A stretch of 64,000 nucleotides of DNA from Promethearchaeota archaeon. GTDB lineage: Archaea; Asgardarchaeota; Lokiarchaeia; Sigyniarchaeales; SOKP01. A model generated the notes under the pieces. That model saw only the letters and a program-made list of their open reading frames with translations, had not been told where the DNA came from and did not search any database. The stretch is from NCBI GenBank assembly GCA_016839555.1, contig JAEOUA010000007.1:192001-256000 (forward strand), written 5' to 3'. Shown in pieces: positions 39,187 to 50,202 of the stretch; the stretch's first letter is position 1; each line of letters begins with the position of its first letter. The translations under genes were made by a program, and so were the position numbers.

Positions 39187-40683
39187 TCACAATTGATTTA
39201 GGAGAGTAATTAAAAAATTCCAAAACTTTTCTACACTTGGCACATTCAATTTTTCATCTGGCGAATGGCATGCTAATATAGTTGGCCCTATGGTAATCAT
39301 TTGTAAATCTGGAGCCTTAACTTTAAAAGCACCACATTCCAGACCTGCATGCATAGCTTTTATTTGTGGTTCTTCATTATTTATCTCTTTATATACTTTT
39401 TTTGCTATAGAAAGCAATTTTTCATTAAAATTTGGTTCCCAGACCCCATAACCTCCAACATTTTTAATTTTGACATTTAACTCCGGCAAATCCAAAAGAG
39501 CAGAAACTTTTTCAGCTGTTTGAGAATTACATTGTAAATTAAAACTTCGATGGAGCATCTCTATTTTTAGTTTACTCTTTTTTGTATTGATTGATGCTAA
39601 ATTGGTAGAGGTATATATTAAATCTTCTAAATTAGGATGTCTTGAAATAGGTCCGTGAGGGAGAAGATATAATACATTTAATATTTTAATTTGAAGATCG
39701 TTAGTTATAACCATGTTAGATATCTCACTTTTATTTAACTTTTCCGATTTTATTTTAATTTGGCTCTCTACGCCATTATATTCAGTATTTAAATCATCTT
39801 GTACTATTTTTAATAAACTAACAATTTCAGAAAATTCTTCCTTTTGTATATACAGAATTGCAAAAGCTTCTCTCGGGATTGCATTAAAACTTTTTCCTCC
39901 TGAAATAGATTCTAAATAAACATCAAAATTTTTATTGATAGCTCTTAAAATTCTTGCTAATAATTTAATAGCATTTGCCCTCCCTTTATCGATATCTAAA
40001 CCTGAATGCCCCCCTAATAACCCTTTAATGGAGATTTTTATAGGAAGTAAATTGGTAGTTAATTCATCAATAGGTATTCTTTTAACTCGTATTTGAATAG
40101 TTGAGTACATACCTCCTACACTGCCAATTACTATGGTTTCAGCGTCCATACAATCAAGATTTATTAAATAATTCACATCGAGTATATCTGGAGATACTTG
40201 GAATGCCCCGATTAACCCTTCTTCTTCATTTACTGTGAATAAAAGTGTTATAGCTAAATTTTGGAGATTCAGCTTATTCTGATAAATTAATTTCATTAAG
40301 GCTAAAGAATATGCCAATCCTACCCCATTATCAGCTCCTAAAGTGGTGCCCTCTGCTGTAATCCATTCTTGTCCATTTACTTCAATCTCTTTTAATTTCA
40401 AAGGATCTTTAGTAAAATCATGTACTATATTTGAACTTTTTTCACAGACCATGTCAAAATGACTCTGTAATATGATTTGAGTAGCGTTTTTAGTGTTTGA
40501 AGGTATTTTGACCAATAAATTACCCGCTTTATCAATTATTGTTTTAAAGCCAAATTTTTCCGCTTCCTTTTTGATATAAGCTCTTATTGGATCTTCGTTT
40601 CCAGAACATCGTGGAATTTCTGAAATCTTCTTAAAATACTCCCAAAATTCCTTTGGTTTGCTTAACTGATTAAAATCATTCAT
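39187..40683 (-). CDS. pepD: Aminoacyl-histidine dipeptidase (M20)
   Basis: IPRCSGNE, LQSHFDMV, GTTLGADNG, EEEGL, GGHSG, HAGLECG, HSPDE. Confidence 0.93.
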   Translation of the reverse strand: MNDFNQLSKPKEFWEYFKKISEIPRCSGNEDPIRAYIKKEAEKFGFKTIIDKAGNLLVKIPSNTKNATQIILQSHFDMVCEKSSNIVHDFTKDPLKLKEIEVNGQEWITAEGTTLGADNGVGLAYSLALMKLIYQNKLNLQNLAITLLFTVNEEEGLIGAFQVSPDILDVNYLINLDCMDAETIVIGSVGGMYSTIQIRVKRIPIDELTTNLLPIKISIKGLLGGHSGLDIDKGRANAIKLLARILRAINKNFDVYLESISGGKSFNAIPREAFAILYIQKEEFSEIVSLLKIVQDDLNTEYNGVESQIKIKSEKLNKSEISNMVITNDLQIKILNVLYLLPHGPISRHPNLEDLIYTSTNLASINTKKSKLKIEMLHRSFNLQCNSQTAEKVSALLDLPELNVKIKNVGGYGVWEPNFNEKLLSIAKKVYKEINNEEPQIKAMHAGLECGAFKVKAPDLQMITIGPTILACHSPDEKLNVPSVEKFWNFLITLLNQL

Positions 40684-40949
40684 ATATTACTTTTTGCCTC
40701 ATGTATTTGTATTTGATATTCCATATCTTTTCTTATTAATCAATATTGTAAATTATTCTTATAATTATCTTTACAACTTTTTTAATAAACTTATTTTATT
40801 CTAAGAATTATTATTTTTGAAATAGTATAAATACGTGTAAGATTGCTTTTGTGTTAAATTTGATAATTAAAAATTTCTGAGAAAAAGATTTTAAATAATA
40901 AGGTTACTAATAATAATATATTAATAATTTTTTTAAAGAGTGGGAAATA

Positions 40950-41270
40950 ATTAGCGAAGATAAAGAAATATGCGATTTATGTGGATTACCGAAAGAGCTA
41001 TGCATATGTTCTGATCTAAGCGCTGACGAACAAGAAGTTGTAATTTCGAACGAGACAAGAAAATGGGGAAAAGTGGTTACACTGATTTCATTCAAGGGAA
41101 AGATTGATGCAAATTTAGATGCACTCCTCACTAAAGCCAAGAAAAAACTTGGAGCAGGTGGAACAATACGCGGTTCAAATAAAATTGAGTTAAGAGGGGA
41201 TCACCGCTTTAGAATTAAAAAATTTCTAACAGAACAGGGCTACGACAAAAATAGGATCAGAATAGAATAA
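40950..41270 (+). CDS. sui1: Translation initiation factor SUI1/aIF1, probable non-canonical ATT start
   Basis: In-frame upstream extension SEDKEICDLCGLPKELCIC...RKWGKVVT, then KKKLGAGGT...IELRGDHR. No ATG/GTG/TTG between TAA (40914-40916) and GTG 41073. Confidence 0.9.
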   Translation: MSEDKEICDLCGLPKELCICSDLSADEQEVVISNETRKWGKVVTLISFKGKIDANLDALLTKAKKKLGAGGTIRGSNKIELRGDHRFRIKKFLTEQGYDKNRIRIE

Positions 41271-41390: not shown

Positions 41391-42323
41391 TTAATATATA
41401 ATATATTTATGAGGATCATCAGGTAACGCTAAAATATCTTCTAAAATTGATTTAAATTCTTTTTGAATCTCGGGTGGTTTATCAATTAATAATTTTGCTA
41501 CTTTATTATATTTTTCCGCTAATTCAATATTACCTAATAGTTTAATTTTATTTGAAAAGGAATATAAATTAATATAAGCTTCTCGATAAGGTAAATCAAA
41601 TAAGGATTTTGAAACCGGTATCTTTTTAAAATTTTCAGAAATAGCTTTTTTAGTTTCAGAGAGATATATTGTAATTTTTCTTATAAGTAATTCCATTTCC
41701 GAATTCACTTCTTTACGCATTTCTTTTATTCTTTCTAATTTTTTTCCATCATTGAAAGTTTCCGCAATTCTTTGCATTTGATTTAATATAGTTATTTTGC
41801 GTGGAAGGCTCTTAACAATTTCGAAACGATTTTGGAGGAAATTATATTCTTTTAAATATTTGGTTTTTTGAGCTTGTTCGATTCTCTCTTCCTCTTCTAT
41901 CTCAATTTTTTCTAATAAATTACTTTCATTTCTTAATAACTCTAGAATTTCATAATCTAACACTTTAAGTCTTTTAAGTGTCCCATCCCAAGTTCTAATA
42001 AGTTCAGAATGGTTTCTTAATATGTCAATAATTTTGGGAATAATTTTAAGTAATTCTAATTCATCTTCTTGATCGGCTATAATAACAATATCTATTCCAA
42101 GCTGTCTAATATGAGTACTATTTACGATATAATTACCCATTTCAATGTTTTTAAGGGTTTTGTCTGAACTTTCTGCCACTAATTCTTTTACAAATGATTT
42201 TATTGCAGAAAAGAAGGAGGAAAATAATTCTAATTTTTGATCACTTATTTGTTTTTCGAAGATTTTTTTCCATATGAGAATTCCGCTTCCACTCTGATAA
42301 ATAAACATATTATAGACAACCAT
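41391..42323 (-). CDS. Longin-domain protein with helical C-terminus
   Basis: FIYQSGSGILIW...LFSSFFSAIKSFVKEL...LKNIEMGNY...WDG longin pattern. Confidence 0.78.
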   Translation of the reverse strand: MVVYNMFIYQSGSGILIWKKIFEKQISDQKLELFSSFFSAIKSFVKELVAESSDKTLKNIEMGNYIVNSTHIRQLGIDIVIIADQEDELELLKIIPKIIDILRNHSELIRTWDGTLKRLKVLDYEILELLRNESNLLEKIEIEEEERIEQAQKTKYLKEYNFLQNRFEIVKSLPRKITILNQMQRIAETFNDGKKLERIKEMRKEVNSEMELLIRKITIYLSETKKAISENFKKIPVSKSLFDLPYREAYINLYSFSNKIKLLGNIELAEKYNKVAKLLIDKPPEIQKEFKSILEDILALPDDPHKYIIY

Positions 42324-49281: not shown

Positions 49282-49410
49282 TTATTAGAAAGTTATTATA
49301 TAAAATCTTAATTATTATAAGCTTAGGATTTATCTCAAAAATTTTAAATAGGAAAATAATTCATAATTTAAGTAAGTATTATTTTAATCAATAAACAAGG
49401 TGAATAAAAA

Positions 49411-50202
49411 ATAACTCTAATATTTGGACCTTTAAATATTCTAGATTATACTCAAGGATCCTTTAGCTTATTATTTTCATTAATTTCTGTTGTACTTGGA
49501 GTCAGTATTCTCTCAAAATATTTTAAATTTAAACAAAGAATTTATATTTTTATGGGATTAACTTGGATTGGGATGGCTACTCCATGGTTTCCTGATTCCA
49601 TCAGTTTTCTTATAATATTGATAGCGAGAATAACTATGCCAATTGAAATATATATACTTATAGGAACAACTCTACTACCCATCCTTTTGTTAATTTGGAT
49701 GGCCGCATTCAGTGAATTACTTTATAAAGATAAACAGAAGAAAATTCTTATGATTTTTGCGATTATTGCTATTATTTATGAATTGATATTTTTTGTGTTG
49801 TTTTTTTTGGATGCAAAAGCATATATTGGAGAATATCAGAGATATTTTCAAGTAGAATTTAAAGAATTTATTACATTATTTGATCTAGCTTTACTTGTTA
49901 TCGTTTTAATTACGGGTATAATATTCGCTAAAAAATCTTTATCCTCATTAGACGAAAAAATCCATTTAAAAGGAAGATTCCTTCTGGCAGCATTTATATC
50001 TTTTTGTATAGGAGCCGCATTAGATGCTTCAACAGGCTTAATCTTTACAGATCTATTCGGGATTTCTAATACAAATCCGTTTATTTCAATTTTCGTTGTT
50101 ATAATTCGAATAATTCTTATTTCATCGGCTTTTGAATTTTATATAGGCTTTATGCTTCCTAAATGGGTTGAAAATCTAATGATAAAATCTAGAGAAGAGT
50201 AA
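49411..50202 (+). CDS. ~7-TM membrane protein, probable ATA start
   Basis: The frame stays open 47 codons upstream of ATG 49552 and encodes an extra TM helix. AGGTGA at 49398-49403 precedes ATA 49411. Confidence 0.7.
   Translation: MTLIFGPLNILDYTQGSFSLLFSLISVVLGVSILSKYFKFKQRIYIFMGLTWIGMATPWFPDSISFLIILIARITMPIEIYILIGTTLLPILLLIWMAAFSELLYKDKQKKILMIFAIIAIIYELIFFVLFFLDAKAYIGEYQRYFQVEFKEFITLFDLALLVIVLITGIIFAKKSLSSLDEKIHLKGRFLLAAFISFCIGAALDASTGLIFTDLFGISNTNPFISIFVVIIRIILISSAFEFYIGFMLPKWVENLMIKSREE

Follow-up and report, generated by a model that had tools for sequence, protein, structure and literature searches.

The gene for the start-codon fidelity factor aIF1 (SUI1) in the window, which is the whole 64,000-nucleotide stretch of DNA from a Loki-type Asgard archaeon analyzed here, lacks a normal start codon. 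It almost certainly starts with a weak AUU that, judging from the orthologous loci, is kept throughout its family and is nowhere exchanged for AUG. We suggest that the AUU-started factor limits its own synthesis by feedback; the explanation as a whole, the AUU start together with this feedback, has a probability of about 0.5. That translation of aIF1 begins at AUU 40950, with the ordinary initiator tRNA and a weak Shine–Dalgarno (SD)-like element as guide, is very probable in its own right; here, we infer both the decoding of AUU by tRNAi and the SD-led recruitment of the ribosome. The features of the region are collected in Table 1.

After the TAA at 40914, the frame reads TAT ATT AAT AAT TTT TTT AAA GAG TGG GAA ATA ATT AGC GAA GAT AAA GAA ATA TGC. 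No ATG, GTG, TTG, or CTG occurs in frame in the window sequence between this stop and the first Cys codon (40971). GTG 41073 is the earliest canonical start in this frame, and a protein starting there loses 41 conserved residues, including the Zn-knuckle. The predicted N-terminal peptide of the ATT-started protein is (M)SEDKEICDLCGLPK. A sequence-only reading of this DNA had placed the SUI1 N-terminus in frame upstream of the called GTG, had found no ATG, GTG, TTG, or CTG between the TAA and the N-terminal motif, had noted GAGTGGGA in front of ATA 40947 and ATT 40950, and had proposed that the ATT gives a protein of 106 residues beginning M-SEDKEIC.... The frame and the positions are as it described, the upstream N-terminus is confirmed by the Zn-knuckle, the Pfam match, and the alignment with 4MO0, and comparison with more than 80 orthologues lends strong support to the 106-residue product.

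Table 1. Features of the aIF1 start region and its neighbors, and other genes with probable AUH starts or without an in-frame start. Positions are those of the window, except where a contig (C) of its genome is named.
Feature	Position	Strand	Remarks
Divergent upstream gene, M20/M28 peptidase family	39187..40683	-	Same neighbor with Pfam hits in L091/L092
Upstream in-frame stop TAA	40914..40916	+	Closes the frame 5' of the aIF1 gene
Weak SD-like element GAGTGGGA	40938..40945	+	Only 3-4 pairable bases
Out-of-frame mini-ORF GTG GGA AAT AAT TAG	40940..40954	+	4 codons; TAG 40952-40954 overlaps ATT by one base
ATA, alternative, less likely start	40947..40949	+	AAA/AGT in relatives, so unconserved; SD distance d = 11, off optimum
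ATT, proposed aIF1 start codon	40950..40952	+	Homologous codon ATT in ~70/81 family loci; M annotated here by NCBI in related MAGs
aIF1/SUI1 CDS	40950..41270	+	106 codons (40950 to 41267) plus TAA 41268-41270; matches Pfam PF01253, NCBIfam NF002096, 4MO0
N-terminal Zn-knuckle CDLCGLPKELCIC	40971..41009	+	Conserved across the phylum sample; aligns to 4MO0 residues 5-17
Existing gene call, GTG	41073..41075	+	65-aa truncated product (P0018); cuts the SUI1 domain
Convergent downstream gene, function unknown	41391..42323	-	
Membrane-protein gene	49398-50202	+	No canonical start for ~48 codons
Examples of probable AUH-start genes, window's genome	C9:65179-65982, C5:287961-288509, C5:103115-103480, C12:179918-180487, C6:164809-165585	-	
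CspA-like gene, outside the window	C6:1641-1898	-	Conserved N-terminus without in-frame start

The ATT-started protein matches Pfam SUI1 (PF01253) with E = 6.6e-14 over profile positions 2-76 of 77; for the form starting at GTG 41073, the match reaches back only to profile position 18. It passes NCBIfam NF002096 with 98.4 bits (cutoff 98) and aligns end to end with Methanocaldococcus jannaschii aIF1 (4MO0; E = 5.8e-19, query 6-105 to 3-101), showing the full-length SUI1 domain, the CxxC...CxC Zn-knuckle, and the length of about 100 aa of an archaeal aIF1. It is the same protein as the aIF1 of M. jannaschii, P. abyssi, and S. solfataricus (PDB 4MO0, 5JB3, 5JBH), sharing their length and their CxxCGLPKELCxC knuckle. 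We assume by orthology that it would bind the 30S subunit near the P site and reject non-AUG codons, as do the Sulfolobus and Pyrococcus factors. A SUI1/aIF1 gene is present in 185 of the 201 Asgard genomes sampled, and the window's genome has a single copy. Since the upstream gene is divergent, aIF1 heads its own transcript, and with a convergent neighbor on the 3' side the gene is monocistronic, which excludes coupling to an upstream cistron.

The aIF1 gene was found in 115 of the 135 species-level genomes of the same family, and the DNA of 81 family loci, each with a defined upstream stop, was read. There is no canonical in-frame start before the Cys motif in 74 of the 81, and a nearby in-frame GTG is present in seven. 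The homologous codon is ATT in about 70 loci, ATC in three, and ATA in one, and ATG, which the sequence-only reading had named as the finding in close relatives that would count against it, occurs at the aIF1 start in none of the 81; these counts ignore kinship, and because the orthologues are related, they overstate the number of independent events. In most family loci, an in-frame stop lies only one to three codons 5' of the ATT. ATA ATT AGC GAA GAT is retained in two independent metagenome contigs whose encoded protein is 92% identical, and a 75%-identical relative (L093) has TTG exactly at the position of the window's ATT. Upstream of ATA-ATT, the 92%-identical contigs show indels and unrelated residues relative to the window; this stretch is therefore not coding, and ATT 40920, which lies in this unconserved region, was rejected as a start. 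The NCBI pipeline already puts the initiator Met at the proposed ATT in several related MAGs (MSEDRDIC..., MNDDEIC..., MKDDDIC...), and other gene callers truncate or extend the family protein.

These data bear directly on two alternatives, that the existing call is right and the gene product is a 65-aa fragment starting at GTG 41073, or that the missing start is a sequencing error. The GTG is the sole canonical in-frame start, and the assembly has likely homopolymer frameshifts elsewhere, for example in the Csp gene described below. However, the 41 residues upstream of the GTG show phylum-wide conservation; they include the first strand of the SUI1 fold as well as the Zn-knuckle. The same ATT is seen in independent contigs and in more than 70 genomes. 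The missing start is not a read or assembly error, because the independent 92%-identical contigs and about 70 of the 81 orthologues keep the ATT. We give both alternatives almost no chance, and they are refuted as far as sequence comparison can refute them.

How would the ribosome be positioned at this AUU? The 16S rRNA gene was not detected in the assembly of the window's genome, so the anti-SD was taken from family members. Their 16S 3' end is GGATCACCTCC(T), and the full SD is therefore GGAGGTGATCC. In the window's genome, SD words peak 6-7 nt before ATG, with the genome-wide ATG peak at d = 14. The GTG at 40940-40942 within the SD-like element gives the SD register that places the ATT at this genome-optimal d = 14. 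The closest relatives have GAGGG instead of the window's element, and most family orthologues have a strikingly conserved AAAGGTTGTGA, with its GTG 13 nt before the ATT. The family AAAGGTTGTGA is an SD with two central mismatches and lies in a register that is used but is not optimal.

The GTG 13 nt upstream of the ATT is found in 65 family loci, and in 58 of these 65 the stop of the mini-ORF that it opens overlaps the ATT (ATTAA or ATTAG); the window has the same arrangement, which the sequence-only reading had not noted, with a GTG-to-ATT distance of 10 nt. A ribosome could then start at GUG 40940, translate a mini-ORF of 4-5 codons, terminate at the UAG or UAA that overlaps the AUU, and restart there. 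We consider such termination–reinitiation improbable. Since the SD holds both GTG and TGA, it brings with it a TGA in frame shortly before the start and a GTG mini-ORF out of frame, and at the usual distance and with a Lys, Ser, or Asn second codon, the whole arrangement is automatic; the mini-ORF may be a simple by-product of the SD. Furthermore, it is broken or absent in about 12 family loci in which aIF1 is intact: an early stop breaks it in L004, L021, L031, and L047, the overlapping stop is missing in L008, L009, and L036, which have ATC, and L015 and L019 are without the GTG. The mini-ORF GTG is also without an SD of its own at the proper distance.

Most family loci have a +2-frame GTG and, in frame, a TTG-TGA, which could be read as signs of a +1 frameshift from the GUG mini-ORF into the aIF1 frame or of read-through of the in-frame UGA after an in-frame UUG. 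Both were rejected, and we regard them as having hardly any likelihood. The loci share no slippery site, and L015 and L019 are without the GTG; many loci have tandem TGA TAA, and in the window GAG TGG stands in place of both the TTG and the TGA.

The SD in the window is very weak, and the leader might also be absent or nearly so, with transcription starting at or next to the AUU and AAAGGTTGTGA being a promoter-proximal element, not an SD. An A/T-rich, TATA-like element ends about 21-22 nt 5' of the ATT in family loci, a spacing that matches the usual archaeal TATA-to-start distance, and GGTTGTGA pairs imperfectly with the anti-SD. However, TATA-like words are everywhere in DNA of 30% GC, and the AUH starts of the window's genome are demonstrably tied to SD distance, as described below. 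In addition, leaderless initiation prefers AUG (review PMC7531240). We consider a leaderless or near-leaderless mRNA improbable.

RNAalifold gave no consensus structure around the start for 34 non-redundant family leaders, and single-sequence folding z-scores of the family leaders are near 0. A palindrome-like element, TTTAGATCTAAA (TTTAGTACTG in other genera), is conserved about 35-45 nt 5' of the family SD-like sequence, for example in L039, L045, and L054. It lies just 5' of the TATA-like stretch in front of the family aIF1 genes and may act as a promoter or operator element; no copy is evident in the window.

We then ask how the AUU of aIF1 compares with the other starts of the genome. The ORFs scanned in the window's genome had at least 100 codons, a frame closed at most 10 codons upstream, and no canonical start within 15 codons. 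In this set, ATT accounts for 16 of the 47 triplets at d = 14 and 8 of the 24 at d = 15, versus 0-5 at other distances. The enrichment coincides with the SD-to-start distance of the ATG peak, which shows that AUU initiation is real in this organism; the peak for ATA is smaller. With 5-mer SD cores, AUH makes up 34 of 55 triplets at d = 13-15 versus 27 of 214 at control distances (p 6e-13). The AUH share of SD-led starts is estimated at 14% with 5-mer cores and 8% with 4-mer cores (p 1e-10), and AUH starts outnumber GTG among SD-led starts. In several dozen genes of this genome, the start is most likely an ATT or ATA that follows a GGTGA-type SD by about 6 nt. Genes with AUH starts have textbook N-termini, such as ATT-KIAVSGKGGVGKT and ATA-VRVFVVDDEP, and include those for a ParA-like ATPase, a Ras-like GTPase, a response regulator, a guanylate-kinase-like protein, and a GPN-loop GTPase. 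The signal recurs in 400 kb from another genus of the family (AUH at 6 of 11 versus 2 of 41, p 5e-4), and in 800 kb from two sister-family genomes it is ambiguous, with p at 0.03 for 5-mer and 0.3 for 4-mer SD cores.

The SD-distance test was used in place of the 'pre-start' length, which was rejected as a measure of non-canonical starts. Spurious ORFs had inflated its value of 17% for ORFs with 80 codons or more, and for ORFs of at least 150 codons it shows no difference between the window's genome (4.9%) and two others, G108 (6.7%) and G032 (4.3%).

The window holds another gene of this kind, for a membrane protein. It has AAGGTGA at 49398-49404 and ATA 49411 6 nt later, and the SD's own TGA/TAA closes the frame; this ATA is probably another AUA start. 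The CspA-like gene of the window's genome has an out-of-frame ATG just before an A-run, and seems to carry an assembly homopolymer indel, or else a genuine frameshift, rather than a non-canonical start. Some 'start-less' ORFs of this genome are probably homopolymer frameshifts as well; the aIF1 gene is shielded from this explanation by the comparative data. The genome is a 92%-complete MAG in 12 contigs, in which ARAGORN with intron search finds only 28 tRNAs. No tRNA with a CAU anticodon was found in it by ARAGORN, with or without intron search, and aIF2-beta (PF01873) was not found in it either.

With AUH at about 8-14% of SD-led starts, the AUU codon alone is no special mark of regulation, and AUU may be read quite efficiently here. 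The aIF1 start is a suboptimal site, an ATT with no canonical alternative, and a site of this type is not unusual in the genome. Is aIF1 then special among the genes with AUH starts? Five other genes were followed through the same 41 relatives for comparison. The ParA/CooC-like gene (21 loci) has ATT only in the window's genome, CTG in one, and ATG in 19. The GPN-loop GTPase starts with ATT in 13 loci, ATA in 1, ATG in 10, and TTG in 1, the ArsR-like regulator with ATT in 10, ATA in 1, TTG in 2, and ATG in 6, and the starts of the guanylate-kinase-like gene are mixed. For aIF1A, the starts are ATG in 21 loci and TTG in 3, and none is AUH. The ATG share is thus 10/25, 19/21, and 6/19 for the GPN-loop, ParA-like, and ArsR-like genes, versus 0/81 for aIF1, in counts that ignore kinship. 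In the same genomes, AUH and ATG interchange repeatedly in the four other AUH-start genes.

These comparisons bear on the alternative in which there is no special regulation at all. Start selection would be relaxed in this AT-rich family, AT pressure would convert ATG to ATT or ATA in many genes, and the weak start of aIF1 would set a low constitutive level or be neutral. The abundance of AUH starts in the window's genome, their detection in another genus of the family, and their occurrence in the ParA-like, GPN, ArsR-like, and guanylate-kinase-like genes are all as this explanation would have it. However, ATG is the start in 30-90% of the family orthologues of the other AUH-start genes but in none of aIF1, and all the changes of aIF1 in the family are to other weak codons, ATC, ATA, GTG, and TTG. 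The aIF1 pattern is that expected if a strong start were selected against. Thus, aIF1 appears to be distinguished by fixation of a weak start, rather than by the non-canonical codon as such. We consider the absence of special regulation unlikely, though it is the most serious competitor of the feedback explanation.

The wider sample comprised 60 aIF1 loci from 19 other Asgard families. About half of these families start aIF1 with ATG, showing that a weak aIF1 start is not required. GTG is the start in five others, and TTG also occurs. CTG is the sole possible start in f6 (L168, L169) and in part of f9 (L180, L181, L186, L187, L220), and in two of the f9 loci, L187 and L220, an in-frame stop lies two codons upstream of the CTG. 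ATA is the sole plausible start in f11 (L191) and f17 (L204, L205). In the loci of these four families that are without ATG, GTG, or TTG, the starts sit behind SDs of the AGGAG or AGGAGG type. The local GC content of the f9 loci with CTG or GTG starts is 41-56%, and the recurrence of non-ATG aIF1 in such less AT-rich families is a further point against AT pressure as the cause. Weak aIF1 starts thus recur well beyond the family, GC-richer genomes included. As to the check proposed with the sequence-only reading, a search of sui1 5' regions across Asgard genomes for a conserved ATT or ATA, the ATT holds in about 70 of the 81 loci of the family, and about half of the other families have ATG.

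The proposed mechanism would operate as follows. AUU 40950, positioned by the weak SD-like element, would be read by the initiator tRNA with a mismatch at the third position. Since aIF1 would destabilize initiation complexes on non-AUG codons, its own AUU would be used less when aIF1 is abundant and more when it is scarce. The same feedback would also steady the expression of the whole set of genes with AUU or AUA starts, about one-tenth of the SD-led genes. Homeostatic feedback of this kind is, in our view, the most likely reason for the fixed weak codon and the avoidance of AUG, although we hold this tentatively, at slightly short of even odds. It is favored because the Sulfolobus factor reportedly rejects AUU in vitro (review PMC4705826), the family avoids ATG, and other Asgard families use weak codons. 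It is weakened because AUU and AUA are common genome-wide and about half of the Asgard families use ATG.

The likeness to bacterial infC is close. There too, a factor that rejects non-canonical starts, IF3, is encoded behind its own AUU with an SD upstream, the codon is conserved in the lineage, and the predicted logic is identical, more factor giving less initiation at its own AUU. However, IF3 and aIF1 are unrelated proteins, and in E. coli AUU starts are very rare and a specific mark, whereas here AUU and AUA serve about one in ten SD-led genes. Repression is demonstrated for infC; for aIF1 here, we infer that the factor represses its own AUU. Eukaryotic eIF1 (SUI1) is the orthologue of aIF1 (Pfam SUI1), and both genes have a weak initiation site. 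In eIF1, scanning leads to an AUG whose Kozak context is weak, whereas in aIF1 here the start codon is weak in itself, whether it follows an SD or stands on a short leader, and eIF5 has no counterpart.

Autoregulation through the AUU of infC and through the poor start context of eIF1 is established. A conserved Asgard AUU would extend weak-start feedback on a fidelity factor from bacteria (IF3) and eukaryotes (eIF1) to the third domain, and would do so in the lineage closest to eukaryotes, the Asgard archaea being their closest known relatives; comparison of AUU and AUG leaders with titration of aIF1 makes the system directly testable. In the literature searched, we found no description of an AUU start or of autoregulation for an archaeal aIF1, and the claim of the sequence-only reading that the feedback loop is undescribed in Asgard archaea holds to that extent. 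Autoregulation of eIF1 is discussed only as a eukaryotic parallel (PMC6237735, PMC7531240), and archaeal initiation reviews list AUG, GUG, and UUG as the sole start codons (PMC7531240).

A more speculative extension, which we rate as doubtful, is that the AUU of aIF1 and the genome-wide use of AUU and AUA are two sides of one lineage-wide change. If aIF1 had become self-limited via AUU in the family ancestor, start-codon stringency might have settled at a lower level, and AT mutation pressure could then have converted many ATG starts to ATT or ATA. If this were true, AUU would rank third among the regular starts, above GUG, in an organism closely related to eukaryotes, and the level of aIF1 would be a global dial for about 10% of the SD-led genes.

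Standard gene callers do not allow ATT or ATA, and aIF1 and dozens of other proteins are truncated in these genomes as a result. The naming of aIF1 is also affected. Among records P0005-P0019, these archaeal aIF1 proteins carry the NCBI name 'stress response translation initiation inhibitor YciH', and two Aenigmarchaeota homologues are labeled 'tRNA lysidine(34) synthetase TilS'. Bacterial YciH has the SUI1 fold in common with the window's protein, but E. coli YciH (1D1R) is only a weak match (E 1.4e-4) and is without the archaeal Zn-knuckle. Judged by sequence and context, the protein is aIF1, and the YciH and TilS labels are naming carry-overs that hide the identity of the gene.
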